Shown here: positions 5,184 through 32,609 of the stretch, one piece after another
How positions within the stretch are numbered: position 1 is the first letter of the stretch
Layout: every line of letters starts with the position of its first letter
Source of the DNA: Patescibacteria group bacterium
GTDB taxonomy: Bacteria > Patescibacteriota > Microgenomatia > UBA10105 > UBA927
Assembly: GCA_023379025.1 (NCBI GenBank)
Contig: JAMCTH010000003.1
Span: 169,259-233,258, forward strand
Length of the DNA: 64,000 nucleotides
Reading direction: 5' to 3'
Notes under the pieces: generated by a model
Seen by the model: the letters and a program-made list of their open reading frames with translations, nothing else
Told to the model about the DNA's origin: nothing
Database searches by the model: none
Program-made: the position numbers and the translations under genes

Positions 5184-7088
5184 TTACGCGGCTTCGCGGG
5201 AAAACGAACCGACAACGGGACGGGCGACGTTTTCGTAAGACTTCTCTGCCATGGAAACGGATTTGGTATGGAGACCCGCGTTAAAGACGATCGTATCGTT
5301 TTTCCGGACGGCATCATCCATATAGAGCGGCACGTCGAATATATGGCCGAACGGCGGTACGGCGCCGATTGGGACGGATGTAACCCGAAGCACCTCATCG
5401 GGTGTCGCCATACGGAGGTCTTTTATTCCGTAAAGTTTTTTGAACGCATGCATGTCTATTTTCCTGTCTCCGGGAAGTACGACCATGAGCGGCTTGCCGT
5501 CACCGTAAAGAAGAATCGCCTTGGCACCGGCAGAGAGAGACGTATGTCTCACGTCCGCCGCTTCCCGGGATGTCGTAACGGCTTTATGTTCATGCGTCTT
5601 GTATTCACTATGGCCCTCGTCCAGAAGCTGTGTGATCGTCCTATACACAGATTCCCCGCCGGTCTTCTTTTGGGAAACGACAGAAATTCCAAGCTCTTTA
5701 AGTTGCCCGTCCGACGCCTGACTCGGCGCATCCATGACGCTCGTCTGCCCTCCCGCTGAAGCGGGAAATGCCATAACCTCCCGAATGCTCGGTTCACCAA
5801 GAGCAGTAAAGAGAAAACGGTCTATCCCCGGCGCGATGCCGCCGTGCGGCGGGACTCCGTACGTAAACGCCGTCAGCATATGGTCAAACTGTGCTTTCTG
5901 CTCTTCGGTAAACCCGATAAGATCAAATACTTTTTCCTGGACGTGTCTCTCATGAATTCTTATGCTTCCCCCGCCGACTTCATAGCCGTTCAGGACCATG
6001 TCGTGCTGCAGTCCCCGGACCTTCATGGGATCGGTCTCAAGAAGCGGTATGTCATCCGGATGCGGAGCGGTAAACATATGATGCGACGGCGCAAACCTCG
6101 CTTTTCCCGATCCGTGATAGAAGTCTTCTTCTGATTGCTCGGTAAAGAGCGGAAAGTCGACTGTCCACGCAAATGCAAGCTCATTGGGGTCTTTTTTATC
6201 GCGCCGCAGGTCCGGCTTATCGGTGCCATAGCGGGCAATCGCTTCCTTATGAGGGATCCTGGGCCAGGGAGTCTCGGTAATGTGTTTTTCCGGAAAAAGT
6301 TCCCCGACAAGCTTCGTAAACAGATCTTCGGCCAGAGTTAAAATATCTTCCTGGGTGACAAACGACAGCTCCATATCCAGCTGCGTAAACTCTCCGTACG
6401 CCCGGTCTTTTCTGGGATCCTCATCGCGGAAACATCGCGCAAGCTGAAAGTAGCGCTCGAGTCCGGCAACCATCAGGAGCTGCTTGTACTGCTGGGGAGA
6501 CTGCGGAAGCGCATAAAATTTCCCTTTCTGGAGGCGCGAAGGCACGATGAAATCCCTGGCCCCTTCCGGCGTGGTTTTTGTCAGAATGGGCGTTTCCACC
6601 TCGACAAAATCACGCTCGGTGAGGTAATTGCGGATAAAGGTGGTCATGCGGGACTTGAGACGGAGGTTTCTTGTCATGCGGGCGCGCCGGATATCGAGAT
6701 ACCGGTATTTCATCCGGATTTCCTCGTTTACCTCATAGCCGTCGGTATCGATAGGAAACGGAAGCTCCCTGGCTTTGCTGATAACCGTAAGTTTTTCTAC
6801 TTCAACTTCCACCTGTCCCGTCGGGATCTTGGGATTTACCATGGAGGCCGGACGCTCCTTCACGACCCCGGTGACTTCGATGACTGCTTCCGGCCGGGCT
6901 TCCGACAGGGTCTGACCACGCTCGCTTTTAAGGTCTGACCCTGAATAAACAAGCTGGACGATCCCCGAGCGGTCACGGAGGTCAAGGAAGGTGATTTTCC
7001 CATGATCCCGGCGGGTAGTCACCCACCCCTTTAGGATAACTTCCTCACCGACCTTTTTGACTGTTTCAACCGCTAGCGTCCGCTTCAT
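5184..7088 (-). CDS. aspS: Aspartyl-tRNA synthetase (short archaeal/ND type, no GAD insertion) fused to a C-terminal YbaK/ProX-like aminoacyl-tRNA deacylase domain
   Basis: Class II motifs FRDEDPRKDRAYGEFTQLDMELSF and GGGSIRIHE...GIAPGIDRF. Canonical AspRS C-terminal end MAFP...QLKELGISV. A further approx. 165 aa (YRTITQLL...KAILLYGDGKPLMVVLPGDRKIDMHAFKKL...SVPIGAVPPFGH...IVFNAGLHTKSV) has a YbaK-like pattern. Confidence 0.8.
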   Translation of the reverse strand: MKRTLAVETVKKVGEEVILKGWVTTRRDHGKITFLDLRDRSGIVQLVYSGSDLKSERGQTLSEARPEAVIEVTGVVKERPASMVNPKIPTGQVEVEVEKLTVISKARELPFPIDTDGYEVNEEIRMKYRYLDIRRARMTRNLRLKSRMTTFIRNYLTERDFVEVETPILTKTTPEGARDFIVPSRLQKGKFYALPQSPQQYKQLLMVAGLERYFQLARCFRDEDPRKDRAYGEFTQLDMELSFVTQEDILTLAEDLFTKLVGELFPEKHITETPWPRIPHKEAIARYGTDKPDLRRDKKDPNELAFAWTVDFPLFTEQSEEDFYHGSGKARFAPSHHMFTAPHPDDIPLLETDPMKVRGLQHDMVLNGYEVGGGSIRIHERHVQEKVFDLIGFTEEQKAQFDHMLTAFTYGVPPHGGIAPGIDRFLFTALGEPSIREVMAFPASAGGQTSVMDAPSQASDGQLKELGISVVSQKKTGGESVYRTITQLLDEGHSEYKTHEHKAVTTSREAADVRHTSLSAGAKAILLYGDGKPLMVVLPGDRKIDMHAFKKLYGIKDLRMATPDEVLRVTSVPIGAVPPFGHIFDVPLYMDDAVRKNDTIVFNAGLHTKSVSMAEKSYENVARPVVGSFSREAA

Positions 7089-7759: not shown

Positions 7760-9469
7760 TCAATAATGGATATCCTTGATTTTGAGCTGGAGTTTCCGGC
7801 TGCCGTTCCAGACGTTCATGTCGATGGTATAGGCGACATCGATCTGCTGACCGGGCTCAAGCTTCCCATACAGGGAGCCGAAGGAAAACGCGATGGCATC
7901 GAAAGAAACATTACTCAATTGTTTCATTGTTACATCGTCAGAGGAAAGCCGTAGTTTAAGATGTTTCCCATCGTTCCCCACTAATCTTGTATCCAGCACT
8001 TTCACCTTCTTTGAAACGAATACCGGCTCCGGATTACCGAATCCGAACGGCGCAAGCGCCTGAAGTTCCTGCCAAAGCTCTGGCGTAACCAGGGACAGCG
8101 GTATCTCCATATCTATCCGGAGCGTCCGTCTGAGCATGTCTTCGTCTATAGTGCGTTCCGCAATATCCGTTAACCGTTTCTTCAATAGTTCAAGATTTTT
8201 TGTCTCTATGGTAAATCCCGCGGCCATCGGGTGTCCTCCGGCATCCACCAAAATATCACTGCATTGCCGGATGCTCTCGATGATGTTAAACCCGGGAATT
8301 GACCGTGCGGACGCTTTGGATACAAGTTCTCCCCGGGACACGACGACCGCGGGGCGCCAGTACTCTTCGGTAAGCCTGCCTGCGACAAGCCCGATAATCC
8401 CCTGGTTATACTCCCCGTGGGCAACAAAAATGAGCTTCCTGAGCGTCTTCGGTACCAAACCCCGCGCATGAAGCGTCGTATCCATGGTCATCTGCTGCCT
8501 CTCCCTGTTTGTCAGCCCGAGCTTTTTTGCAAGCAATTCCGATTTCTCAGCATTATGCGTACAAAGAAGCCGGAGCGCATCCAATGCGTGCTCTATCCTG
8601 CCGGCTGCATTAAGCCTAGGAGCAATCATATGCGATATCTCATACGTTCCTATTGATTTCTGATCTAATCCTGCTTCGGAAATAAGCGCGGCAAGCCCAA
8701 CTCTTCGAATGCTTCTTAGAGCTTCCAGTCCAAATTTTGCGATACTTCTATTCGGACCGGTAAGCGGGAGAAGATCCGCGATTGTCCCGATTGCCGAAAG
8801 TGCCAATAGTTCGTCTGTAAATTCCTTATCCGAAGTCAGGGTCAGACCTTTCTCTTTTAAGGTCTGACCCTGCAGAAGTTCGTGGCAAACAAACCAGGAG
8901 ACACCGGCTCCGGATAGTTTTGTCGTATGAACAATCGTACACTCCGGCAATGTTTTTGGTTTAACGTGATGGTCGGTAACGATAACATCTATTCCCTTCT
9001 CCTTTGCATAGGCAACCTTCTCCCGTGCCGTTATACCATGATCAACGGTAATGATGAGCGTCGGACGAAAGTTCTCGATTACCGAGTCTAGTCCCTTTAT
9101 CGATAATCCATATCCTTCCTCTACCCGATGAGGAATATACGGCATGACCCTTGCCCCGAGACTGTGGAGCGTTTCCCACATGACCGCACCTGCCGTGATA
9201 CCGTCAGCATCATAATCTGCGTACACCACGATAGATTCCTTGTTTTGTATAGCTTTTTCTATGCGCCTCATGGCGCCTGCTAATACCCGGGCATCGATAT
9301 CGACATCTTTTGCCGTAAGGCGGGAGGGATTCAGGGGACTCAGAAATGCTGCAGTGACTCTTGTCGTTTTGAGACCTCTATTGTTAAGTAAAATTCTGAT
9401 AACCTCTTTATTTGTGATTTGAGATTTGTGATTTATGATTTTCCCAACGACGTCCCACTTCCTATCCAT
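7760..9469 (-). CDS. recJ: Single-stranded-DNA-specific exonuclease RecJ (DHH/DHHA1)
   Basis: DHH motifs VYADYDADGITAG, TVDHG and VIVTDHH. Start set at MDRKWDVVGK.... The upstream 364 codons of the 933-aa track ORF are antisense to cca and are rejected. Confidence 0.8.
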   Translation of the reverse strand: MDRKWDVVGKIINHKSQITNKEVIRILLNNRGLKTTRVTAAFLSPLNPSRLTAKDVDIDARVLAGAMRRIEKAIQNKESIVVYADYDADGITAGAVMWETLHSLGARVMPYIPHRVEEGYGLSIKGLDSVIENFRPTLIITVDHGITAREKVAYAKEKGIDVIVTDHHVKPKTLPECTIVHTTKLSGAGVSWFVCHELLQGQTLKEKGLTLTSDKEFTDELLALSAIGTIADLLPLTGPNRSIAKFGLEALRSIRRVGLAALISEAGLDQKSIGTYEISHMIAPRLNAAGRIEHALDALRLLCTHNAEKSELLAKKLGLTNRERQQMTMDTTLHARGLVPKTLRKLIFVAHGEYNQGIIGLVAGRLTEEYWRPAVVVSRGELVSKASARSIPGFNIIESIRQCSDILVDAGGHPMAAGFTIETKNLELLKKRLTDIAERTIDEDMLRRTLRIDMEIPLSLVTPELWQELQALAPFGFGNPEPVFVSKKVKVLDTRLVGNDGKHLKLRLSSDDVTMKQLSNVSFDAIAFSFGSLYGKLEPGQQIDVAYTIDMNVWNGSRKLQLKIKDIHY

Positions 9470-9487
9470 ACAGGGTATAATACCAGT

Positions 9488-10858
9488 ATGCAACGCCTCC
9501 CTCAACCTGCCCAGAACATCATCGATACCCTCAAAAAAAAGGGCTATGAAGCCTACGCCGTCGGCGGCTCGGTCCGCGACCTTATCATGAAACGACCGAC
9601 GAAAGGCTGGGACTTTACGACCGACGCGACACCGGAACAAATACTGGAAGTTTTTCCTGACAGTTTTTATGACAACCAATTCGGTACCGTCGGCATCAAA
9701 CTCTATGAACCCGGTACCGATCCGAAGAACCCGGTGCTTAAGGATATCTATGAGATCACTACATTCCGGAGTGAAAAGGAGTATACGGACCACCGGCATC
9801 CGGATAACATCCTGTGGGGAACCTCGCTTACGGAAGATCTTTCGCGGCGGGACTTCACGATCAATGCCATCGCCTATGACGGCAAAACGGTTACAGACCC
9901 GTATGACGGACAACAAGATCTCGAAGGTCGGTTGATCCGGGCAGTCGGAGAACCTGACAAACGGATCGCGGAAGATGCCCTCCGCATGATGCGTGCGGTG
10001 AGGATCGCTACGGAACTCGGTTTCCTGATTGAGGACCAGACCTCGGCAGCTATCCGGAGCAATGCGAACCTCCTCTCCGGTATATCGGCCGAACGTATCC
10101 GGGATGAACTGCTGAGGATCCTGGGGGCCGAGCACGCCGCTGACGGGATACTGATTCTCAGAAATACCGGCATCCTCAAACAAATCCTTCCGGAGCTGGA
10201 CGCATGTTTCGCCGTACAGCAAAAAAGTCCGAAACGGCATCACATCTATGACGTAGGCACCCATTCCGTCATGGCTCTCAAGTTCTGCCCTTCCGCCGAT
10301 CCGGTCATCCGGCTCGCAACCCTTCTTCACGATATCGGAAAGGCAAAGACGTTCCATAAGGACGGAGAAGGCCTCGTCACCTTCTATAACCATGAAGTCG
10401 CCAGTACAAAACTTGCCCGGAATATTGTCACCCGGCTCAGGTTTTCTAAAAAAGACAGTGAGACCATCCTCACGCTTATCCGCTGGCATCAGTTCAGCGT
10501 CGATGAACGGCAGACAGACAGCGCGCTCCGGCGTTTCATCCGGAGAGTCGGAAAGGAACACCTCAAAGACATACTGGCCCTGCGCATCGGGGACCGCCTC
10601 GGCGGGGGTGCGCAGGAAACGTCATGGCGGCTCGAACTTTATAAAAAACGGCTCGAAGATGTCCAGAAGCAGCCCTTCACCGTTGCCGACCTTAAGGTAA
10701 ACGGCTTTGATGCCATGAAGATGTGTGACGACAAGCCCGGACCACGGATCGGCAAAATTCTGACGGCGTTATTTGGGGAAGTAGAAAAGGGAACTCTTGC
10801 CAATGAGCGGACTGCGCTTCTGTCGCGGATGAAAGATCTGGTTACGAGCATTCACTAA
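9488..10858 (+). CDS. cca: CCA-adding enzyme / tRNA nucleotidyltransferase (PolyA_pol head domain plus HD domain)
   Basis: GGSVRDL and RRDFTINA nucleotidyltransferase motifs. HD motif LLHDIGK. Start at MQRLPQPAQNIIDTL. Confidence 0.8.
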   Translation: MQRLPQPAQNIIDTLKKKGYEAYAVGGSVRDLIMKRPTKGWDFTTDATPEQILEVFPDSFYDNQFGTVGIKLYEPGTDPKNPVLKDIYEITTFRSEKEYTDHRHPDNILWGTSLTEDLSRRDFTINAIAYDGKTVTDPYDGQQDLEGRLIRAVGEPDKRIAEDALRMMRAVRIATELGFLIEDQTSAAIRSNANLLSGISAERIRDELLRILGAEHAADGILILRNTGILKQILPELDACFAVQQKSPKRHHIYDVGTHSVMALKFCPSADPVIRLATLLHDIGKAKTFHKDGEGLVTFYNHEVASTKLARNIVTRLRFSKKDSETILTLIRWHQFSVDERQTDSALRRFIRRVGKEHLKDILALRIGDRLGGGAQETSWRLELYKKRLEDVQKQPFTVADLKVNGFDAMKMCDDKPGPRIGKILTALFGEVEKGTLANERTALLSRMKDLVTSIH

Positions 10859-10878: not shown

Positions 10879-11760
10879 TTAACTTTTCTTTTTTTGGTTT
10901 GCCCGGCGGTTCCAGACCAGAAGTACCGGGGTAGCGACAAACGGCGATGAGTAGGTGCCCGAAACCGTTCCGATAAGGAGCGCCACGACAAACCAGTAGG
11001 TCGTCGAGCCGCCGAGAAGAACGAGCGCGAGAAGCATGAAGATGATGGTAAGAGAGTTCGCAGTCGAGCGGCCGATGGTTTCGGTGAGCGCGCGGTCACA
11101 AAGGTCATCAAAAACCATTCTGTCCCCGTATTTCCGGTATTCCCGTATGCGATCGAAAACGACGATCGTATCATGTACGGAAAAGCTCATGGTTGTGAGA
11201 AATGCCGTCACGAACAATGTGTCTACTTCCACATGGAAGAAATGTCCGAACAGCGAAAAACAGCCGAGCACCACAAGAAGGTCATGGGCCAGTGCAACAA
11301 TCGCAGCGACGCCGAACCGGACGTTACGGAACGCATAGGCAACATAACTGAGGATGCCGATGATTGCCAGAAGTGCCGCCGCAAGGGCTTTTGTGAGAAG
11401 TTCTTTTCCAAGGACCGGACCGACCGTTTCATTCCTCAGGATTTTCGGTGCCGGTTTTGTAAGTGTGAGCAGCGTCTCCTCAAATGTCTTCAGTGACGAA
11501 TCCTGTTCCGGCTTAAGGCGCAGAAGATATGTCCCTCCCTGTGACTGCTGAATACTCGAGAGCGTAACTTTCGCATTTCCGGCCAGAATCATAAACATCT
11601 GATCCGTAACCGGTTTGGGAACACTCACTTCAAGGAGTGTGCCGCCGGTAAAATCTATGGCAGGCACGAGCCCCCAGCGTACGAGAGAGTACATTCCGGG
11701 CACCAAAACAAGTGCTGACAGCAGAAAATATATCCAGAGATATTTACTGAATCGGATCAT
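10879..11760 (-). CDS. secF: Protein translocase subunit SecF
   Basis: IDFTGGT motif, multiple TM helices. Immediately downstream of secD. Start at MIRFSKY. Confidence 0.85.
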   Translation of the reverse strand: MIRFSKYLWIYFLLSALVLVPGMYSLVRWGLVPAIDFTGGTLLEVSVPKPVTDQMFMILAGNAKVTLSSIQQSQGGTYLLRLKPEQDSSLKTFEETLLTLTKPAPKILRNETVGPVLGKELLTKALAAALLAIIGILSYVAYAFRNVRFGVAAIVALAHDLLVVLGCFSLFGHFFHVEVDTLFVTAFLTTMSFSVHDTIVVFDRIREYRKYGDRMVFDDLCDRALTETIGRSTANSLTIIFMLLALVLLGGSTTYWFVVALLIGTVSGTYSSPFVATPVLLVWNRRANQKKKS

Positions 11761-11807
11761 GGGTTCACCACTCCCTTCCGTCACAGGACATGCAATCCTC
11801 CCCGTTT

Positions 11808-13175
11808 TTACGTAGTTTTTTCATGATAGAGCACTCGGATAAATGTCCGGGTTACGATAATCCCGGTAAAAAGGCTCGTCACGACACCGATAAGAAGTGT
11901 TATGGCAAATCCCCGGACCAGTCCCGAATCAGGGAGGAGCGACCAGTTGCCGGGATTGTAGAGGATGATGCAGGTCAGGATGGTCGTAAGATTTGCGTCC
12001 CGGATACTGTCCCATGCCCGTCCAAAGCCGAGTTCCATCGCAATACCCGCTGACTTACCGCGCCTTTTTTCTTCGTGGTACCGCTCAAAGATCAGGATGT
12101 TGGCATCGACCGCCATACCGATAGACAGGATAAATCCTGCAATACCAGGCAACGTCAGTGTGACCGGAATAAGCCGGAATACCGCAAAGGTGATCAGACC
12201 GTAGAGGAAAAGGGCCATGTCTGCCAGAAATCCCAGCATGCCGTATTTGGCAATCATAAATGCCGCAACGATGAGAAGCCCTATGGCACCCGCACGGACG
12301 CTCTCTATCACCGACCGTGTTCCGAGTGTCGCACCGACCGTCCGTTTTTCTATGACGTGGACGGGAACGGGAAGTGCGCCTGCATTAAGCTGCAGCGCAA
12401 GCGTCTTTGCCTGATCCTGGGTAAATCCGCCGGTAATGACCGCCTGCCCGTCCGTAATCGGCGTGTTCACCCGCGGCCAGGTAAGCGGCTCATTATCCAG
12501 AAATATGGCAAGTTTTTTGTTGACCAGCCGGTTCGTGACCTCCCCGAATTTCCTGGCTCCGGAGGGGGTAAACGTGATCCCCACCTCCGGCTCGCCCGTC
12601 TGCGAGCTGAACTGGAGCTGAGCACTCTCGAGGTCTTTTCCTGTAATCCCCACGGATTCCGTATTGGTGAGAAGCGGAATGACAAATGCATCCGACGTAG
12701 CCTCTTTGGGATTGGTAAATTCACGGAACTCAAGCTTTGCCGTCTGCCCGATAAGGCCGATTGCCTGGTCCACATCCGATATGCCGGGAAGCTCTACAAT
12801 AATCCGGTAACTGCCGTTTTCATGCGCGGTCTGAACCACCGGCTCCGACACTCCGAACAGGTTTACCCGTCTTGAGATGACCTGGCTTGCGGAATCCAGA
12901 GCGCTCGTACGGTCTGCCGGATTGATGTCTTTCATATCCGCTTCAAGAACAATGTGCGTTCCACCCGACAGATCAAGACCCAAATGCGTACGGATCTCTT
13001 TTTGTACGGTAAGTCCGAAAAGGGAAAAAGATATATTCGGCGGATTGATGACGCGGTCTATTGTTATCGGTCCGGCCTGAAACTTCAGATGGTAATGCTC
13101 CGGCAGATCAATGACCGCACAGATGACGGCGAGAACGAGAAGCAGGATAAATACGCGTCTGGGATTTCGAAACAT
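11808..13175 (-). CDS. secD: Protein translocase subunit SecD
   Basis: N-terminal TM, periplasmic domain, C-terminal 6-TM bundle (GLDLSGGTHIVL motif). 455 aa. Confidence 0.85.
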   Translation of the reverse strand: MFRNPRRVFILLLVLAVICAVIDLPEHYHLKFQAGPITIDRVINPPNISFSLFGLTVQKEIRTHLGLDLSGGTHIVLEADMKDINPADRTSALDSASQVISRRVNLFGVSEPVVQTAHENGSYRIIVELPGISDVDQAIGLIGQTAKLEFREFTNPKEATSDAFVIPLLTNTESVGITGKDLESAQLQFSSQTGEPEVGITFTPSGARKFGEVTNRLVNKKLAIFLDNEPLTWPRVNTPITDGQAVITGGFTQDQAKTLALQLNAGALPVPVHVIEKRTVGATLGTRSVIESVRAGAIGLLIVAAFMIAKYGMLGFLADMALFLYGLITFAVFRLIPVTLTLPGIAGFILSIGMAVDANILIFERYHEEKRRGKSAGIAMELGFGRAWDSIRDANLTTILTCIILYNPGNWSLLPDSGLVRGFAITLLIGVVTSLFTGIIVTRTFIRVLYHEKTT

Positions 13176-24706: not shown

Positions 24707-25498
24707 TCAACTGGAAGCAGACGCATATTGTCCCAGTGCAAAGCGCCATACCCTGAGCGATACGGCGATACTGACCGCGCCGATCACAAGAGACAGAACG
24801 ATACCTCCCGGCGTAAGAAACCCCATGAGGGCCTTTGCCGGAAAGGTCATCATGACGCCGACAGGCAGGACAAACGTAATGATGCTGCGGAGCGGTTCCC
24901 GATAGATATCAACCGGCAGCCTGCCCATGTTCGTCAGGTCTCGATACATCATGACCATATGATCGACCTCCGTCGTCAGTATGGCCAGGGCAAGGACGAC
25001 AATATGAAACGCCGATGCGATGACAAACGCATTGATAAGAAGCGCTATATAGAGCACCACGCCCACGGGATCGACCGCAGGGAGCGAACGGGCGACAACG
25101 ACCAGCGCCGCGACATAGGGAAGGAGCATGAAAAGATCAAGCGGATCAGCGCCGCCCGCAAGCGCCCGGAAGAGGGCGTTCATGGGTTTTGTGAGCACGA
25201 GATCAAAGTCACCGGTGACGATCAGTTGACGGAACCGGTAGACTTCACGGAACACAAGCTGTGTGACCGTATCAATGAGATTGAATGTGAGGTAAAAAAA
25301 CAGGGCCTCGGTAAGAGAATAGTGCGCTATACTCTCGGTTTTTCTGAAGAGTGCCCAGAGAAATACGCTAAAAAGTAAAAACCTGGCCATCTTTCCCACG
25401 AGGAATATCGCGGCACTCAGCCGGGACGAGAGCACCGAGATAAAGGAATGAACGGTCAGTATCTCCCAAAGCTTGAAATAGCGTTGTATCGTCCGCAT
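24707..25498 (-). CDS. ABC-2 family transporter permease (paralog B')
   Basis: 6 TM helices. C-terminal ...VWRFALGQYASASS mirrors 29838..30623 (...WRFALRFYTSASN). Start at MRTIQRYF. Confidence 0.6.
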   Translation of the reverse strand: MRTIQRYFKLWEILTVHSFISVLSSRLSAAIFLVGKMARFLLFSVFLWALFRKTESIAHYSLTEALFFYLTFNLIDTVTQLVFREVYRFRQLIVTGDFDLVLTKPMNALFRALAGGADPLDLFMLLPYVAALVVVARSLPAVDPVGVVLYIALLINAFVIASAFHIVVLALAILTTEVDHMVMMYRDLTNMGRLPVDIYREPLRSIITFVLPVGVMMTFPAKALMGFLTPGGIVLSLVIGAVSIAVSLRVWRFALGQYASASS

Positions 25499-25503
25499 AA
25501 TGG

Positions 25504-26295
25504 TCACCGTCCCTCCGCTGTATAGACCCGCAGTCCCCGCCTCCACAGGGTGTCGGCGGCCAACCGAAATACGGCGACCCAGACAATCCCGACCAGAAAT
25601 GCCGAAGCGACTGACTGCCACGGGATAGCGCCGAGATATACCCGGAGAGGAACATAAATAAAATAGGAAAACGGCATGGCAGTGGTCAACAGATAGAGAG
25701 GTTTCGGAAGAATATCGAGAGGGAAAAGCATCCCGGCAAAAAACTCCGTGATGACGAGAGTAAGAAACCGCGGCGCCCAAACATCAGGAGTCCAAAAACC
25801 GAGAAGCGACAGAATGAGGCTGAAATGAAAAAAGAGCACCATACCAAGAAGAAGCAACAGAAACGAGGTAACAAGGATGATCGGATTTGTCTGGATAAAC
25901 ACCTCCGGCCGGAGAAGGAAGACGAGGAGCGTAATTTCGACAACCGCACATCCTGCATTAAGGAGCTTGTCTGCCGCATCCCGGCAGGCAATATACCGGA
26001 AAAACCCGAGAGGTTTGGTGAGATAGTTAGACAGGGTTCCGTCGTTTATCATCACCCCTACCTCCTGGGTTCTCGTCCCCATGACAAACGGACGCACGAA
26101 TGAAGAGAGCAATACATAGGTAAGCATCATGCCCTCACTGTATCCGAACAACGTCGTTCGGCCGGAGAAAATCGCCCACCAGAGAAAATAAGTGACCAGA
26201 AGCTGGATGTTGACCCGTACCCGCCAGAGGAAAAAGCTCAGCCGGTAGGCCATATATTCCGCCATAGTTCCTTTGATTATCTGCAAAAACTTCAT
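25504..26295 (-). CDS. ABC-2 family transporter permease (paralog A')
   Basis: 6 TM helices. N-terminal MKFLQIIKGTMAEYMAYRLSFFLW is similar to 30627..31439 (MKYVRMFLLHFEQAFEYRSRNLVWFL). Confidence 0.6.
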   Translation of the reverse strand: MKFLQIIKGTMAEYMAYRLSFFLWRVRVNIQLLVTYFLWWAIFSGRTTLFGYSEGMMLTYVLLSSFVRPFVMGTRTQEVGVMINDGTLSNYLTKPLGFFRYIACRDAADKLLNAGCAVVEITLLVFLLRPEVFIQTNPIILVTSFLLLLLGMVLFFHFSLILSLLGFWTPDVWAPRFLTLVITEFFAGMLFPLDILPKPLYLLTTAMPFSYFIYVPLRVYLGAIPWQSVASAFLVGIVWVAVFRLAADTLWRRGLRVYTAEGR

Positions 26296-26427
26296 ACCTC
26301 TTTTCCTGACGCGTCCCGGAGTTTTCTGAGACGGCAATCATCTGATACCAAGTTTAGCAAAAAATATCAATCGCCGGGGTGAATCGCTATGAGCGTCTAT
26401 CAGTCAAATAGTATACAATGAAAACAC

Positions 26428-28608
26428 ATGATCTCACCTGTGGTTCTGCATATTAAAGTCCCCAGGGAAAACACAAAAGGCCCGGTAGCCATGGAGGGCG
26501 TCTATGACGGCCTTGATGAACTGTTTCGCCACGAACAGACACCAGTCGCTTTTGAAATAGTTCTCAAAAACGGATTTCTGTATTTTATTGTTGTTTGCGA
26601 GCGCAGGGTAGTTGATCTGGTACGTGGACAATTATATTCCCAGTACCAAAATCTTGAGCTTGAAGAAATTTCTGATTACTCTGGCACATTCTTTGCCTGG
26701 CCAAGCATTACAACACTCACCCTCAAACGACCCCATGCTTATCCGCTCCGCACCTACCGGAACCTCCCGAACGATTTTCTGACGAATCTCTCGGGGATGG
26801 CCACTTCCGTCGGCAAAAACGAATCTGCAGCAATACAGATTATTCTCCGAGCAATAGATGCCGATTCCTTGTCCTTTAAATCGGAACGGTTTTTGGAGAC
26901 TTCGTGGAGATCAGCACTCAGAAAAAATTCATCACTCCGTGAACTTCTGGAAGAGGAGGAAAGGAAAAAATTGCAAAAATCTTTATTTCGCGCAACTATA
27001 CGCATTGCAACGGCTACAGGATCTAAATCCGATGCACTAGGCGCCTCGATCGCATCGTTATTTAAAATACTTGATAACGAACACTTAAACGAACTGAAAA
27101 TCTGGAATGTGTCCCATCGCACACAGACGGCGGAGGAGTATAAAAGCCGCGTCATGACCAAGAATCTTCTCCTGTCTTCCGAAGAACTGGCAACAATCTA
27201 CCACTTTCCCTATTCCGGAGCAAATATATCGCAGGTCGCCGTCTCAAAAACTAAAATGGCAGAGCCTCCGACTAATCTTCCGGTATCACCTGAGGCCATC
27301 CCATTTGCGGTCACAAACTTCCGCGGCAGCGCTACTCAGTTCGGCATAAAACGTGAAGACAGAAGAAAACATCTGTATATCATCGGGAAGACCGGTGTCG
27401 GCAAAAGTAAACTCATAGAACTTCTGGCTCTTGCTGACATCCGTGAAGGCAAAGGATGCGTCATCATGGATCCGCACGGCGACTTGGCAGAGGAGCTCCT
27501 CCGTTACATCCCGCGGGAACGGCTGTATGACATCATCTATTTTAACCCGGCAGACCGCGAGTATCCCATGGGATTTAATCCGCTGGAGAGTGTCGGATCG
27601 TTCGAATACAGACAAAATGTGGTTGCCGGATTCATCGCGATATTCAAAAAACTTTTTGGCTTCACCTGGAATCAGCGGCTCGAACATGTCCTACGGTTCA
27701 CTACACTCGCACTTCTCGATGTACCCGGTACGACCGTACTCGGAATTACCAAAATGCTTTCTGAAACGGATTACAGGCAGGAAATTGTCGCACAAATTCA
27801 GGATCCTCTGATCAAAAAATTCTGGACAACAGAATTTTCGTCCTGGAATGAGCAGTACGCCGGTGAAGCCATAACGCCGGTCATCAATAAAGTCGGACAA
27901 TTCGTCGCGAATCCGCTCATCAGAAATATTGTTGGACAGGGAAAGAGTACCGTAAAAATCGACGAGCTGATCAATAATGAAAAAATTGTCATTGCAAATT
28001 TTGCGATCGGAAAACTCGGAGAGGAAAACAGTGCACTTCTCGGCGCCATGTTCATAACGAAACTCTGGCAGGCGGCAGTGGCCAGGGCATCTCTCCCCGA
28101 AGGGGAACGAAAAGACACGTTCCTCTATGTCGACGAATTTCAAAACTTTGCAACCAGCGCCTTTGCCAATATCCTTTCAGAAGCAAGAAAATACAAACTG
28201 AACCTTACGGTCGCTCATCAGTATATGATGCAACTGCCCGAAGAAGTGCGGTCTACCGTCTTCGGAAATGTCGGATCGATTATTGCCTTCCGAGTCGGCG
28301 GCGAAGATGCTTCCGTACTTGAAAAAGAATACAGTCCGACATTCTCATCTCAGGATTTTATGAATCTCGATATGAGAAATTTCTATATCAAGATGACCAT
28401 CGACGGTCAGACAGCGCTCCCGTTTTCCGGAAAAACACTCGATTTCCCCAAACCTGACGCAGATCTCCTGACGGATGTCGTACGGATCTCGCGGGAACGC
28501 TGGGCACACCCAAGAAGCGACGTTGAACGCGAACTTATGTCTGATACGGAAACTCCTTCTCCGGCACCTGAAGCAAAGGCGCAAACATTCTCCGAACCTA
28601 TTATCTAA
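26428..28608 (+). CDS. FtsK/HerA-superfamily P-loop ATPase (VirB4/VirD4/TraG-like coupling-type ATPase), 726 aa
   Basis: Approx. 300-aa N-terminal domain with no TM. Walker A HLYIIGKTGVGKSKL followed by DPHGD. Walker B FLYVDEFQNF. ARKYKLNLTVAHQYMMQL motif (RKYG-like) typical of TraG/VirD4/HerA ATPases. Confidence 0.6.
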   Translation: MISPVVLHIKVPRENTKGPVAMEGVYDGLDELFRHEQTPVAFEIVLKNGFLYFIVVCERRVVDLVRGQLYSQYQNLELEEISDYSGTFFAWPSITTLTLKRPHAYPLRTYRNLPNDFLTNLSGMATSVGKNESAAIQIILRAIDADSLSFKSERFLETSWRSALRKNSSLRELLEEEERKKLQKSLFRATIRIATATGSKSDALGASIASLFKILDNEHLNELKIWNVSHRTQTAEEYKSRVMTKNLLLSSEELATIYHFPYSGANISQVAVSKTKMAEPPTNLPVSPEAIPFAVTNFRGSATQFGIKREDRRKHLYIIGKTGVGKSKLIELLALADIREGKGCVIMDPHGDLAEELLRYIPRERLYDIIYFNPADREYPMGFNPLESVGSFEYRQNVVAGFIAIFKKLFGFTWNQRLEHVLRFTTLALLDVPGTTVLGITKMLSETDYRQEIVAQIQDPLIKKFWTTEFSSWNEQYAGEAITPVINKVGQFVANPLIRNIVGQGKSTVKIDELINNEKIVIANFAIGKLGEENSALLGAMFITKLWQAAVARASLPEGERKDTFLYVDEFQNFATSAFANILSEARKYKLNLTVAHQYMMQLPEEVRSTVFGNVGSIIAFRVGGEDASVLEKEYSPTFSSQDFMNLDMRNFYIKMTIDGQTALPFSGKTLDFPKPDADLLTDVVRISRERWAHPRSDVERELMSDTETPSPAPEAKAQTFSEPII

Positions 28609-29513
28609 TTCAGGTACTGAAAACCCGGATAAAACGACGTCATCACTTCTGATACCGTTCTCGTATATTCCTCCGGCGTATACTGCCTGTTCAAAATACA
28701 GTTCTTTGCGTGGGAAAGTTCCGCACATCCGAAACAATTGTGACAGTCAACGCAATTAGCAAGAAACGCGCTGTCATAACAATTACTCGACCAGTCCGCG
28801 AACCTGCAATTGTAGAGCTTTGAAGAGTCGCGACACTCATAACATAGTTCGACCTGGGCGCATTGCGTCAGATCGTAGGAGTTTTTACAATAAAAACTGT
28901 CGTATAGGTAGCCGCAGTCTTCGTCATGGGCCGCGTCGTAACAGAGATAGAGGTTTAATGCGTAGTGGACATGATTCCCGTAGCTGCTGTTCTCCGAATG
29001 GGTGACATTGGACGGTCCAAAGGGATATGTTCTAATGAGATTTTTAAGATCGAGAAGATTCTGATCGGAAGGACGGGCAAGAAGCCCGGCAAGCCGTCTC
29101 TTATATTCTTCCTGGGTATATTGCCTGTTACATATACAATACTGCTTCTGCCTGAGATGCGTGCACCCGAAGAGATCATGGCTGTCTATACAATCCCAAC
29201 AAAAATGGCTGTCATATATCCTGGCACAGTAGTCGAGATATGTACTGTTGTATGCTCTAAGACAATCAACACACCCGTAAAGCTTCTCGCAATCCACATC
29301 ATAATCGCCGTCAACACAGTCAACACACCGTACGCTGTCGAAAAGATACAGGCACCGTTTATTATATGCGCAGTCAAAGGTATAGTAGCAGTCCGCAGAA
29401 TGATAGGTGTATCCGGTATAATCGCAATTTTCGTTATCGATATTCCCGGTCGGAGGCCGTGGGAGCGATCGCCGAAGCATGCTATATGCTGAAAGAAAAT
29501 CGGTGAACGTCAT
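28605..29513 (-). CDS. Cysteine-periodic repeat protein (approx. 36 Cys in 303 aa, C-x8-C / C-x2-C register, two half-repeats)
   Basis: Start at MTFTDF, 4-nt overlap with the upstream zinc-ribbon gene. Repeated units such as CGYLYDSFY/CKNSYDLTQ/CRDSSKLYN/CRFADWSSN/CYDSAFLAN/CVDCHNCFG. Both halves end in LRQKQYCICNRQYTQEEY / NCILNRQYTPEEY. No signal peptide. No family recognised. Confidence 0.55.
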   Translation of the reverse strand: MTFTDFLSAYSMLRRSLPRPPTGNIDNENCDYTGYTYHSADCYYTFDCAYNKRCLYLFDSVRCVDCVDGDYDVDCEKLYGCVDCLRAYNSTYLDYCARIYDSHFCWDCIDSHDLFGCTHLRQKQYCICNRQYTQEEYKRRLAGLLARPSDQNLLDLKNLIRTYPFGPSNVTHSENSSYGNHVHYALNLYLCYDAAHDEDCGYLYDSFYCKNSYDLTQCAQVELCYECRDSSKLYNCRFADWSSNCYDSAFLANCVDCHNCFGCAELSHAKNCILNRQYTPEEYTRTVSEVMTSFYPGFQYLN

Positions 29514-29800
29514 TTTTGGAGAATATCCGTCGTATCGTAATACTGCCGGTAACACGTCTGGCAGAGGATTTTTGCCGAAACCGTTGCAGGATCGTACGTC
29601 GTCACCATGGCCGCACCGCACTGTTGACAGGTCGTCCGGAATAATTTACGCTCCCCCCGTCCCCGCAGACGCCGGAGCTGCCGGTCTGATGGACACAGTG
29701 TCGGCATTGGCAAATTCATTTTTTTAAGAAATTCCTCCTCCTGGGATATCACAAGAAATTTCTGACCGCAGGACGCACACACGTGGGTAGTATCTGCCAT
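29510..29800 (-). CDS. Small zinc-ribbon protein (three CxxC pairs)
   Basis: Start at MADTTHVCASCGQKF. Further CxxC at TCQQCG and LCQTCY. 96 aa. Directly downstream of the permease gene, translationally coupled to the next gene. Confidence 0.45.
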   Translation of the reverse strand: MADTTHVCASCGQKFLVISQEEEFLKKMNLPMPTLCPSDRQLRRLRGRGERKLFRTTCQQCGAAMVTTYDPATVSAKILCQTCYRQYYDTTDILQK

Positions 29801-29837
29801 ATATACCCATGGTATCACAATTTTCTCTTGACAACCC

Positions 29838-30623
29838 TTAATTGCTGGCGCTTGTGTAGAACCTGAGCGCAAAACGCCAGAACTTCCGGGAAACAAGAAA
29901 CAGACCGACCGCTACCCCCATAAGAAGCGCCGCATCCTGCCAGCGCGCATGGGAAAGAAAAATTTTTGCCGGAATATTGATGATAAGCGTAAAGGGAAGG
30001 AAAAAAACGAAGATATAACTTGCCAGCTGATGCAGCATTTCCGCCGGATACCTTGCCGCACCCGTTACGGAAAACATGAGCTCCGTCAGATTCGAGAGTC
30101 TCGTATGCCAGATCGTAACGGTAATGACAATAAACCAGAGCGAGTAAAGGGTCAGGAGACTAAAGATCATGATCCCGGCAATCGGAAGAATATTCCATAC
30201 GGTCGGAATGATATGGAGAATCCCGGCAATATACCAGGTGTACGCCAAAGCGATAAGGACGCGGGAAAATGTGGCGTATCCGACAAGCCAGAACGTCAGG
30301 AGGAACTGCGAATCGATCGGTTTCACGAGGATGCTGTCAAGCTGCCCGAAATGAATAATTGTAGAAAATCGCTCGAAATTTCGAGAAAAAAATACATGGT
30401 AACAACCGATTATGATACCGTAAAGACCATTGAGAAGCAGCAGCTCATCACGACTCCACCCGAAAACAACCGTTATTTTTGATGTCAGCAATACAATGGA
30501 AAAAAGGGAAAACAATCCCCACGCCACGCTAGACACAAGACTGTTTAAAAAATGAGCGCGGTAGATAAGAAGTGCCGAAAAATTCAGCTCCAGAAGTTTT
30601 TTGTATACACGGATATATCTCAT
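29838..30623 (-). CDS. ABC-2 family transporter permease (B)
   Basis: 261 aa, 6 TM. 4-nt spacing from the upstream permease. C-terminal RFYTSASN. Confidence 0.6.
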   Translation of the reverse strand: MRYIRVYKKLLELNFSALLIYRAHFLNSLVSSVAWGLFSLFSIVLLTSKITVVFGWSRDELLLLNGLYGIIIGCYHVFFSRNFERFSTIIHFGQLDSILVKPIDSQFLLTFWLVGYATFSRVLIALAYTWYIAGILHIIPTVWNILPIAGIMIFSLLTLYSLWFIVITVTIWHTRLSNLTELMFSVTGAARYPAEMLHQLASYIFVFFLPFTLIINIPAKIFLSHARWQDAALLMGVAVGLFLVSRKFWRFALRFYTSASN

Positions 30624-30626
30624 ACG

Positions 30627-31439
30627 TTACTGACCGATGCCGGTAAAGAGCCGGAGTCCGGTAACCCAGAGTTTTTTGTAACAGAGTAACAGGGTAATCA
30701 GCCATACGATCTGTATCGCGATCACCCTTACGGCATCCCAGCCCAAAAGATTGCCTTCAAGCGCCATCACGGGATAATAGATCATATAGGCAAACGGCAG
30801 TATCTCGGCAAGTGTCCTGAGCAGGGGGTGAAAAAACTGTACAGGTATCACGAACCCGGCAAAAACCATGAATATGACGGTCACGAGCTGCTCGAAACCG
30901 CTGTAATCGGTCATCCAGAGGGCAGACAAACCGACGATCATCTTAAACACAAACGAAAGGAAATACGCGATCACACCGGAAATCCCGGCGACCACGAGGG
31001 CAGCCGGAGCCGAAGCCACATGCAGAAACGAACCGAACGACACAAGAAACCCCGCAAGGATTACAACTCCGAATGCACCCTGGATCACCCGCCACGGAAG
31101 TTCTTCATAAAACTTGATCCAGAAATAGGAAAAGGGACGGAGCAGATATTTCACGAGACCCCCTTCCTGGATATCGTGCCGTGCGACGTCTTCCTCAACA
31201 TGCACGGTAAGGAACGCCCCGGCAAAAATCAGGAGAAAATAGTAAGAGGTAATCTCCGAAAATGAGAGCGGCATCCCCGTAAGCTTTCCGCCCGCATACG
31301 CCGCCCGCCAAAACAGAAGGTAGAGAAGCGGGTTAAGAAGCTCCACGAGAAACCAGACGAGGTTTCTGCTCCGGTACTCAAATGCCTGCTCGAAATGGAG
31401 AAGAAACATGCGGACATATTTCATACAATGAAATCGCAA
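30627..31439 (-). CDS. ABC-2 family transporter permease (A)
   Basis: 270 aa, 6 TM. Follows the ABC ATPase. Confidence 0.6.
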   Translation of the reverse strand: MRFHCMKYVRMFLLHFEQAFEYRSRNLVWFLVELLNPLLYLLFWRAAYAGGKLTGMPLSFSEITSYYFLLIFAGAFLTVHVEEDVARHDIQEGGLVKYLLRPFSYFWIKFYEELPWRVIQGAFGVVILAGFLVSFGSFLHVASAPAALVVAGISGVIAYFLSFVFKMIVGLSALWMTDYSGFEQLVTVIFMVFAGFVIPVQFFHPLLRTLAEILPFAYMIYYPVMALEGNLLGWDAVRVIAIQIVWLITLLLCYKKLWVTGLRLFTGIGQ

Positions 31440-31607
31440 AACTCAAATCCCAAATCTAAAAGTTATCTCAAATCTCGAAAAGATATTGTTCGAACGCACG
31501 TGAGAACTTCTCGCGAAGTTTACCTCGAGACTTCTCGCCGAGAGGCTCGAAGAATAGGCTTGGAGATGGCTTCTCAATTTGTCGGAAGATAGGAATATAT
31601 CCATTGG

Positions 31608-32609
31608 TCATTGGTCCGCCGGTTGGCGGATGAGATTTGAAGCTTTCAAAAAAACATCCCTGATAATGTCTTCGATATCCGGTTCTTCGATATTGAGGTC
31701 CTCTACGGGAAAATCCTGCAATAGCTCCGCTGCCGCGACGTTGCTTGCGCTTCTCGGCACACGGATGACGGCATGGGGAAAATTGTACTCCGCAAGCTCT
31801 CCTATGGATCTGAATTTATCCGGCGCGATATAGGTATCGAGGACTACGGACAATACCTTATATTTGGCAAATTTCCGGACGAGCTGATCGAGTTTTCCGT
31901 CATAAAGGATCTTGCCGTGATCAATGATGATCACGCGACGCGCCAATTGACGTACGTCTTCCATATAGTGGGACGTCAGAAGAATCGTTGACTTGTGGAG
32001 TTCGTTATATGACTGTATGAAGTCACGCATCTTTTTCTGCATGACCACATCAAGTCCGATGGTCGGCTCGTCGAGAAACAAAACCTTCGGGGCATGGATG
32101 AGCGCCGCGATCAGTTCCATCTTCATCCGTTCACCGAGGGAAAGCTTCCGCACCTGAACTTTAAGGAGCGGCTCAACGTCCAGAAGTTCGACGAGTTCCC
32201 GGAGTGTCTTTTTGTAAGCATCATCCGGAATTTCGTATATCTCCTTATTGAGAAGGAAAGTCTCGAGAGCCGGCAGGTCCCACCAGAGCTGATTCTTCTG
32301 CCCCATGACCAGGGCGATCTGCCTGAGGTAGGCATTTTTGCGCTCATACGGGGTGTATCCGAGCACCCGGACCGCACCGCTTGTGGGGTACAGTAAGCCC
32401 GAAAGACACTTGAGAGTCGTCGTTTTTCCTGCGCCGTTCGGACCGATAAAACCAACCAATTCCCCTTCACCGATAGTAAACGAGATATCATTGACCGCCT
32501 GCACGGTCTCATACTGCCGTGCGACCAGCGACCGGACGGATCCCAAAAATCCGGGTTCCTTCCGGTGCACCTGATAATACTTTTTGAGATGAGCAAGAGA
32601 TATAACCAT
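31608..32609 (-). CDS. ABC transporter ATP-binding protein
   Basis: Walker A GPNGAGKTT, signature LSLGERMK, Walker B LFLDEPT, H-loop. 333 aa with a C-terminal extension. Confidence 0.85.
   Translation of the reverse strand: MVISLAHLKKYYQVHRKEPGFLGSVRSLVARQYETVQAVNDISFTIGEGELVGFIGPNGAGKTTTLKCLSGLLYPTSGAVRVLGYTPYERKNAYLRQIALVMGQKNQLWWDLPALETFLLNKEIYEIPDDAYKKTLRELVELLDVEPLLKVQVRKLSLGERMKMELIAALIHAPKVLFLDEPTIGLDVVMQKKMRDFIQSYNELHKSTILLTSHYMEDVRQLARRVIIIDHGKILYDGKLDQLVRKFAKYKVLSVVLDTYIAPDKFRSIGELAEYNFPHAVIRVPRSASNVAAAELLQDFPVEDLNIEEPDIEDIIRDVFLKASNLIRQPADQ

Follow-up and report, generated by a model that had tools for sequence, protein, structure and literature searches.

Coupling proteins such as TraD, DotL, and Cag-beta bind TraM, DotN/IcmSW, and CagZ via their C-terminal regions. 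According to a recent survey, Patescibacteria carry 5,713 VirD4-type homologs in 2,918 genomes, just 148 of which lie near virB4; the type IV secretion system (T4SS) of Patescibacteria is described there as essential for the epibiotic lifestyle, and the authors do not rule out exaptation of the VirD4-type homologs (Microb Genom 2025, PMC12102498). We analyzed a 64-kb stretch of DNA from a Patescibacteria group bacterium (contig JAMCTH010000003.1), all of which is referred to below as the window. Here, a gene for a related ATPase stands beside the genes for a zinc-finger (zf) protein and a cysteine-rich protein with a predicted beta-solenoid fold, and these three genes (hereafter, the trio) are bracketed by the genes of an ATP-binding cassette (ABC) transporter of the ABC-2 type. 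An earlier note on this DNA had described eight genes in this region as one arrangement, and all eight are present where it placed them, as judged by the open reading frame (ORF) listing and by family scans. Start codons were chosen by ribosome-binding site context and ortholog lengths.

The window is core chromosome of a Microgenomates-type bacterium of the candidate phyla radiation (CPR)/Patescibacteria. Our overall reading is that a conserved trio was inserted into an ABC-2 operon and would encode a DNA-acting motor together with its adaptor, and we give this statement as a whole a probability of about 0.45. Its comparative part, comprising the core-chromosome location, the pre-existing operon, and the conserved linked module, is highly probable when taken alone. 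Its mechanistic part, a DNA-acting motor with the zf and solenoid proteins as adaptor or regulator, is put forward tentatively, at somewhat short of even odds, and is favored by the gene neighborhoods together with the fold. We consider the trio genes to be linked because their neighborhood is conserved in varied gene orders, because their domains occur as fusions, and because the C-terminal tail of the ATPase tracks the presence of the solenoid.

A conserved three-gene module

Two of the trio genes lie on the minus strand, the zf gene at positions 29510 to 29800 (96 amino acids, aa) and then the cysteine-rich gene at 28605 to 29513 (302 aa); the ATPase gene lies on the plus strand at 26428 to 28608 (726 aa). 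The stop codon of the zf gene overlaps the start of the cysteine-rich gene by 4 nucleotides (nt; ATGA), and the cysteine-rich and ATPase genes are convergent with a 4-nt overlap at 28605-28608, as had been noted before.

Homologs of the cysteine-rich protein were collected from fetched contigs and from a GTDB genome scan based on a nine-sequence alignment, followed by tblastn with the window proteins. The 60 close homologs are ~295 to 310 aa long, and none has a Pfam domain. The zf, cysteine-rich, and ATPase genes occur together on all 20 contigs with usable flanks (~15 distinct genomes), and the genomes that carry them are metagenome-assembled genomes (MAGs) resembling Woese-, Gottesman-, Roizman-, and Levybacteria. 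In most of these contigs, the ATPase gene adjoins the other two and converges on them with overlapping 3' ends; it is co-directional with them at three loci (L004, L009, and L010). The zf gene is ~3 kb off at L009 and was not seen on the short contig L010. Two further loci, recovered with the ATPase as a query at 44 to 45% identity (L019 and L020), have the trio as well. By tblastn, no ABC-2 ATPase or permease gene was found within 8 to 10 kb of the trio in ~17 other genomes. The co-localization of cysteine-rich, ATPase, and zinc-ribbon genes that the earlier note had proposed is therefore seen on every usable contig, but the membership of ABC-2 genes in the set, which it had also proposed, is contradicted by these ~17 genomes. 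Judged from sequence comparison, the conserved unit is a three-gene module of a zf_Tbcl protein, a Cys/Ser-ladder solenoid, and a DUF8128-VirD4/VirB4/HerA-type ATPase.

In distant lineages, the ATPase gene and genes for zf-solenoid-zf proteins also lie side by side, with differing gene order and copy number. A metagenome survey seeded with the ATPase returned 80 loci at 33 to 55% identity, 8 of which have one to three solenoid genes beside the ATPase gene in varied orders. Neither a solenoid neighbor nor a fused zf is present at ~50 of the 80; therefore, the association is limited to some ATPase subfamilies.

Some trio loci have features of their own. At L007, from an NCBI MAG, frameshifts or pseudogenization have split the ATPase gene (10926-13101) into three or more ORFs, and the zf and cysteine-rich genes are intact; an intein-containing UvrD/PDDEXK helicase gene and a YafQ toxin gene are found nearby. 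Three trio-bearing GTDB representative MAGs (L013, L015, and L016) are titled "uncultured Gammaproteobacteria" or "Pseudomonadales," and these taxon labels are probably wrong. The trio of L015 adjoins the genes for RecA and RecX, which are 65% and 28% identical to those of the window.

The interrupted ABC-2 operon

All five transporter genes are on the minus strand. The first encodes an ABC-2-type, DrrA-like ABC ATPase (31608 to 32609; ABC_tran E 6e-27, TIGR01188 E 2e-61), the second permease A (30627 to 31424; ABC2_membrane E 2e-05, with a score of 24.8 below the gathering threshold of 26.9), and the third permease B (29838 to 30623; ABC2_membrane_6 E 7e-40). The fourth and fifth, on the other side of the trio, encode permease A' (25504 to 26295; ABC2_membrane_6 E 2e-22) and permease B' (24707 to 25498; ABC2_membrane_6 E 7e-36). 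An ABC_tran nucleotide-binding domain (NBD) is thus encoded in one operon with ABC-2 membrane proteins, the composition of an ABC-2 type exporter, and three of the four permeases match ABC2_membrane_6 above threshold. The C-terminal permease motifs reported earlier (RFYTSASN and QYASASS) are present. Permeases A and A' are paralogous at 23% identity (E 2.5e-16) and permeases B and B' at 24% (E 4.5e-12); they are true but old paralogs. Recent duplication of the permease pairs was ruled out, the pairs being just 23 to 24% identical.

The same operon is found without the trio in two other genomes. On the 1.07-Mb contig L022, which encodes an ABC ATPase 85% and an HU 92% identical to the window counterparts, the order RecA-RecX-RNaseY-HU-ABC-A-B-A'-B'-LytR_C-HAD-MiaB-MiaA-AI2E...ComM-DUF3048 agrees with that of the window at every gene, apart from the missing trio and a distance of 9 nt between the B and A' genes. 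The L022 orthologs of permeases A and B are 48% and 46% identical to those of the window. The Gottesmanbacteria MAG L023 has the same order as L022, yet only ABC-A'-B'. In the uninterrupted operons of both, the orthologs of permease A' are 60 to 63% identical and those of permease B' are 66 to 67% identical. In the window, ABC-A-B-A'-B' also sits between the HU and LytR_C genes, and a 3.5-kb three-gene block (29837 to 26296) splits B from A'. One junction is a 37-nt gap from the permease B stop to the zf start (29801 to 29837), and the other is a 132-nt spacer between the divergent starts of the permease A' and ATPase genes (26296 to 26427).

As the operon is uninterrupted in L022 and reads ABC-A'-B' in L023, the ancestral state is therefore a three- or five-gene ABC-2 operon. 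Only the closest available relative, L104 (ATPase 73% and cysteine-rich protein 70% identical), shares the arrangement of the window, seen on one side: its permease A' and ATPase genes likewise diverge. The insertion is therefore common to a sublineage. These comparisons indicate that ABC-A-B-A'-B' is a pre-existing ABC-2 operon into which the trio was inserted in the window's sublineage and that the bracketing by ABC-2 genes is an artifact of this rearrangement.

The earlier note had read the arrangement as an insertion or duplication that bracketed a cargo module, with a second, paralogous permease pair lacking its own ATPase. The insertion and the paralogy (23 to 24% identity) agree with our comparisons, but the second pair is no orphan duplicate, being the distal part of the five-gene operon in L022, and the intact trio-free operons of L022 and L023 contradict the description of the trio as ABC-2 cargo. 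The note had also described 4-nt overlaps or short gaps between the genes, which applies to the zf/cysteine-rich overlap and to the 37 nt between permease B and zf, but not to the 183 nt between the ABC ATPase and permease A genes. Only 1 nt separates the L022 orthologs of this gene pair. The 183-nt noncoding spacer (31425-31607) holds short inverted repeats and has no Rfam match.

A repeat search at the trio junctions gave no convincing target-site duplications or terminal inverted repeats; the only strong repeats came from the internal duplication of the cysteine-rich gene. With the operon interrupted by the trio, A'-B' therefore need their own promoter from the spacer at 26296 to 26427, and a weak sigma-70-like promoter match lies at this new divergent spacer (minus strand, 26437 to 26410). 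We regard the ABC-2 transporter as functionally unrelated to the trio and as probably still working, with A'-B' transcribed from the new spacer.

The cysteine-rich protein

The product of the gene at 28605 to 29513 has 28 cysteines in 302 aa, fewer than the ~36 first counted, and the periodicity reported with that count is confirmed: 26 of the 27 Cys-Cys spacings are multiples of 3, and 9 is the commonest. The protein is acidic (pI 5.0, net charge -15; family median pI 5.1, net charge -14). It consists of two ~146-aa modules with 35% mutual identity, and the module duplication is still traceable in the DNA as two 47-nt direct repeats (28659-28705 and 29097-29143; 79% identity) that lie 438 nt, or 146 codons, apart. 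The AlphaFold2 (AF2) model, with a predicted local distance difference test score (pLDDT) of 69, has two beta-rich lobes with helices after each, and the protein is best modeled as a tandem duplication of a ~146-aa module with a predicted beta-solenoid fold.

Conservation reaches 86% or more in ~12 of the 28 cysteine columns; the others vary among C, S, T, and A. Such replaceable cysteines fit inward-pointing small residues of a beta-solenoid core better than metal ligands. A metal cluster as the main explanation of the cysteine pattern was dropped, most columns being variable in this way. The conserved subset C105, C108, C117, and C126, with C254, C263, and C272, could still bind metal.

No family in Pfam, NCBIfam, or PADLOC matches the cysteine-rich protein. 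A sequence profile search of the PDB gave only a weak left-handed beta-helix match, and the hexapeptide/left-handed beta-helix and pentapeptide repeat families gave no significant profile or fold match. Among phage protein families, phrog_15341 matches the solenoid (E 7e-10) and phrog_5156 matches the ATPase (E 1.5e-68); the cysteine-rich protein was not found in viruses by an IMG/VR scan or by phage tblastn. A full-profile search with the solenoid family matched the representatives of 3,859 clusters at E <= 1e-3, of which 1,250 reached E <= 1e-30.

The zinc-finger protein and its fusions

The 96-aa zf protein (NCBI entry MCL4359874.1, annotated as a hypothetical protein) is basic (pI 8.9) and has two treble-clef zinc fingers. 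PF13451 (zf_Tbcl) matches above its gathering threshold (28.2 bits versus 24), and PF23477 (zf_Tbcl_2) falls slightly below (23.7 versus 27). In finger 1 (window 29695-29706, zf residues 36-39), the second ligand pair is C-P-[STA]-D, not C-P-x-C, a conserved Cys-to-Asp replacement common to the L007, L011, L012, and L013 orthologs.

Fusions between the two partner domains are frequent. An architecture scan covered 158 proteins, and among these, namely, the 150 matches listed and 8 cluster members, 71 have a zf-solenoid-zf architecture of ~550 to 600 aa, 6 are zf-solenoid-solenoid-zf, 14 are zf-solenoid, 7 are solenoid-zf, and 55 are the solenoid alone. A borderline hydrophobic stretch is present in only 2 of them. 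Fusion also extends to the ATPase, as a zf_Tbcl_2-type finger is joined to its C terminus at 20 of the 80 ATPase-seeded loci.

One locus, L021 (2800-16050, 32% GC), has at least eight tandem zf-solenoid-zf paralogs beside a TrmB regulator and no ATPase gene within the 16 kb. Its tblastn scores rise when genetic code 25 is used, and under code 11 the translation of the called gene failed to match the query; L021 is probably a recoded lineage of the Gracilibacteria or Absconditabacteria type.

The ATPase and its C-terminal tail

The ATPase had been described as a 726-aa P-loop ATPase of the FtsK/HerA/TraG type without transmembrane (TM) segments, and this description is borne out by matches to TrwB_AAD_bind (28.8 bits versus the Pfam cutoff of 20.5), DUF87, T4SS-DNA_transf, and TraG-D_C. 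Walker A (GKTGVGKS, residues 320-327) and Walker B (DEFQ, 569-572) are both invariant across homologs. The AF2 model (pLDDT 86) has an all-alpha insertion at ~392-502; this insertion and the FtsK/HerA-type NBD with its Walker A and B motifs are both features of type IV coupling proteins (T4CPs). Sequence profiles reach TrwB alone, and weakly. The exact ATPase protein, like the zf protein, is present in NCBI from a MAG titled "Patescibacteria group bacterium."

The N-terminal domain (~1-290) is alpha/beta in the model and corresponds to DUF8128 in homologs. The window protein itself has no PF26449 match at E<0.01 by hmmscan; most homologs at 44 to 73% identity have a precomputed PF26449 (DUF8128) match, and residues 5-150 of the ATPase align with a TM-DUF8128 protein that is encoded on its own (E 4e-11). 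There is no convincing TM anchor, as the only segment over the hydropathy threshold (residues 39-57, 1.68) is a beta-hairpin in the model. Overall, these matches point to a soluble 726-aa member of the VirB4/VirD4/HerA clade with a DUF8128-type N-terminal domain.

The ATPase ends in a variable linker of low pLDDT followed by the motif F-x-E-P-[IL]-[IV], which alignment of homologs places at residues 721-726 in the window protein (F-S-E-P-I-I; 28588 to 28605, plus strand). F721 and P724 are invariant across 50 homologs. Over all fetched loci, 23 of the 29 ATPases with a solenoid neighbor carry the motif, plus three with near variants, as against 0 of 78 others (0/58 without a solenoid neighbor and 0/20 fused to a zf). 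This distribution is as expected of a partner-docking peptide, and we propose the FxEPII tail as a candidate site at which the zf/solenoid partner docks.

Other subfamilies of the ATPase differ in their ends and neighbors. The zf-fused and some partner-less ATPases end in another recurrent motif, approximately P-G-E-x-[IV]-[KR]-F-[ND] (L052, L062, L065, L072, L086, L087, and others). A partner-less subfamily (L026-L058; e.g., L034 122-1474 and L043 3476-4525) has recurrent upstream neighbors, namely, a ~350-aa sigma70_r4 plus HARE-HTH protein in 32 loci and, in 22 loci, a ~450-aa ORF whose product has TM helices at its N terminus and a DUF8128 domain, with TopA often farther upstream. This ~450-aa ORF is a gene of its own or else the split-off N-terminal part of the ATPase gene. 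Soluble, distant homologs of the ATPase are also encoded by large Bacillus phages, namely, gp156 of phage G (91564-93093) and gp27.4 of SPO1. The phage G protein shares 26% identity with the ATPase across 66% of the query (E 4e-42), with an alignment that begins within the N-terminal domain at residue 187.

Proposed function and alternatives

In the mechanism that we favor, the ATPase would form a soluble hexameric motor of the FtsK/HerA type. Its flexible C-terminal FxEPII tail is predicted to recruit the basic zf protein and the acidic solenoid, which would serve as adaptor or regulator, in a role that may be likened to that of the C-terminal regions by which TraD, DotL, and Cag-beta recruit their partners. 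The resulting complex may act on DNA in recombination, in the processing of incoming DNA, or in chromosome handling. Several gene neighborhoods are consistent with such a role. For example, recA and recX flank the trio at L005, L006, L014, and L015, and in the window both are 5 to 9 kb away. RmuC and an AddA-like helicase-nuclease are encoded near the trio at L007, L009, L012, and L013, and TrmB regulators adjoin at L004, L021, L025, and L041. In the wider ATPase family, upstream genes encode the sigma70_r4/HARE-HTH protein at 32 loci and TopA at 6. The two partners also contrast in charge, with a pI of 8.9 for the zf protein versus ~5 for the solenoid.

Several observations weigh against this mechanism. 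The DNA repair neighbors represent only two or three independent syntenic contexts, which is weak guilt by association, and the solenoid model is just moderately confident at a pLDDT of 69. The correlation of the tail motif with the solenoid is partly confounded, being inflated by the shared ancestry of the motif-bearing ATPases. The zf-solenoid-zf genes form tandem paralogs (3 copies in L025 and L055 and at least 8 in L021), and one would sooner expect such expansions in a family of cargo, effector, or sensor proteins than in an invariant component of repair machinery.

Those expansions would suit secretion, in which the ATPase is the coupling protein of a chromosomal Patescibacterial T4SS or other envelope conduit and the zf and solenoid proteins are tail-recognized substrates or adaptors that are exported without a Sec signal. 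We consider this unlikely, though it retains a real chance. The all-alpha insertion is typical of T4CPs, in a related ATPase subfamily the gene upstream encodes a membrane-anchored DUF8128 protein, and the partner family has almost no TM or signal sequence, the borderline stretch in 2 of 158 proteins being the nearest to one. Cysteine-rich solenoids are usually extracellular. However, the window ATPase has no TM anchor, and no T4SS gene was found among the Pfam-scanned genes of the 64-kb window or of the related loci. The Microgenomates partner is single copy, 32 to 70% identical, and strictly syntenic, as a subunit would be, and zinc-stabilized fingers and rigid solenoids make poor T4SS substrates. 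In favor of secretion, the Patescibacteria survey knows of no T4SS substrates in CPR and places most T4CP homologs at a distance from virB4; against it, the survey reports that the T4CP homolog of "Ca. Southlakia epibionticum," which may or may not be a DUF8128 protein, is nonessential, unlike other T4SS genes (PMC12102498).

Somewhat less likely still is that the trio, with its tail-bearing DUF8128 ATPase, is a CPR-specific ATP-driven recruitment/translocation system in which the acidic solenoids would be the long-sought cargo or adaptors of the essential Patescibacterial T4SS or else DNA-mimicking regulators of a DNA motor. If true, this would mean a new, very large protein family (~3,900 clusters at 50% identity) with a new kind of coupling-protein partner.

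A HerA-type anti-phage defense or conflict system, with the ATPase as a motor or sensor and the variable zf/solenoid proteins as diversifying sensors or decoys, is improbable. PADLOC HerA and mad8 models match at E 3e-14 to 1e-3, but the ABC ATPase gene also matches mad8 (E 2e-11), and hence the PADLOC mad8 match reflects generic P-loop similarity. The paralog arrays of zf-solenoid proteins could be expected of such a system, as could the PHROG matches to both ATPase and solenoid and the ATPase homologs in phages G and SPO1, but no solenoid homolog was found on viral contigs in the IMG/VR scan or by phage tblastn. Effector domains such as nuclease, Sir2, or TIR are also missing from the trio, and its core-genome synteny (recA-recX-rny-hup) and rates of evolution are those of housekeeping genes. 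The degenerate T4SS-related conflict system that the earlier note had considered is disfavored by the single-copy, syntenic conservation on the core chromosome across Microgenomates and by the absence of an effector-type enzyme domain.

Finally, a single metal-handling or peptide-maturation/export system made of the ABC-2 exporter, the Cys-periodic protein, and the ATPase, with the trio as the transporter's cargo module, is very improbable: the trio is physically bracketed in the window, the 37-nt gap between permease B and zf makes co-transcription possible, and the layout is repeated on one side in L104, but ~17 other trio genomes have no ABC-2 gene within 8 to 10 kb, the ABC-2 operons of L022 and L023 are intact, syntenic, and trio-free, no maturation enzyme is present, and Ser, Thr, or Ala can take the place of most cysteines (with ~12 of 28 at least 86% conserved), which leaves the metal or peptide role suggested earlier without support.

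Other genes of the window

Window genes recognized by the scans include those for aminoacyl-tRNA synthetases, RecJ, SecDF, ComM, an AI-2E transporter, MiaA, MiaB, a HAD hydrolase, a LytR_C protein, HU, RNase Y, RecX, tRNA-Pro, and RecA. An Rfam scan of the window gave no RNA families, and tRNA-Pro is the sole RNA gene found. A run of short minus-strand ORFs from ~41 to 61 kb looks like a ribosomal protein operon. Two further minus-strand genes were noted. At 5184-7088, a tRNA_edit (YbaK/ProX-type) editing domain forms the C-terminal part of a class II Asp/Asn/Lys-type tRNA synthetase, a fusion that to our knowledge appears unusual. At 7760-10561, a 933-aa RecJ has its DHH domain only from residue 444 on, and its ~440-aa N-terminal extension has no Pfam match at E <= 1e-4.

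Comparison with known systems

The ATPase superfamily and its orphan status in CPR are already known, and several described systems invite comparison with the trio. Unlike the T4CPs VirD4, TrwB, TraD, DotL, and Cag-beta, the window ATPase has no N-terminal TM anchor and has a ~290-aa DUF8128-type domain instead, and no T4SS or relaxase genes are nearby among the Pfam-scanned genes of the window and ~20 related loci. Conjugation-specific NCBIfam models score far below their cutoffs (conju_CD1115, 58.5 bits versus 250; SXT_TraD, 42.8 versus 366; and TOL_TraD, 34.2 versus 648). We know of no described T4CP that has a treble-clef zf protein and a Cys/Ser-ladder solenoid as partners. Compared with VirB4 and archaeal CedB-CedD, the ATPase has no match to the CagE_TrbE_VirB N-terminal domain and scores 37 bits for CedD against a cutoff of 600, and a VirB3, VirB6, or CedA-like membrane partner is absent from the trio neighborhood. 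In HerA-partner systems (HerA-NurA, Sir2-HerA/Nezha, HerA-DUF4297, and DptH of Dnd), the partners are enzymes, whereas the trio partners have no nuclease, NADase, or other enzymatic domain; the window ATPase also has an alpha/beta N-terminal domain rather than the HAS-barrel of HerA, and its context is housekeeping and not a defense island.

For the cysteine-rich protein, the nearest known kinds are beta-solenoid repeat proteins such as left-handed beta-helix acyltransferases, curli CsgA, the RTX beta-roll, the Tenebrio antifreeze protein, and pentapeptide-repeat DNA mimics. The transporter resembles uncharacterized ABC-2 transporters with ABC2_membrane_6 permeases, in which one DrrA-like ATPase is followed by pairs of ~260-aa six-TM permeases and which in Microgenomates are syntenic and kept as a three- or five-gene operon. 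The window operon differs from these in being split by the trio and in its 183-nt spacer between the ATPase and permease A genes. Recognizing the ABC-2 bracketing as a rearrangement artifact prevents the annotation of a wrong system.

Searches of Pfam, NCBIfam, PADLOC, and the searchable literature did not find the partner family, the fusions, the tail motif, or the ABC-2 insertion artifact, and nothing relevant was found in the literature on DUF8128, PF13451/zf_Tbcl, or Cys-rich beta-helix proteins in Patescibacteria. The trio ATPase probably belongs to the orphan VirD4-type T4CP homologs of the Patescibacteria survey, the accessible text of which makes no mention of the DUF8128 N-terminal domain, the zf/solenoid partners, the fusions, or the tail motif (PMC12102498). 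The Cys/Ser-ladder solenoid family merits a Pfam entry. Among the thousands of orphan VirD4-like ATPase genes in Patescibacteria, one large subfamily can now be tied to a dedicated partner set through three kinds of evidence, namely, a conserved neighborhood, gene fusions, and a co-varying C-terminal tail motif.

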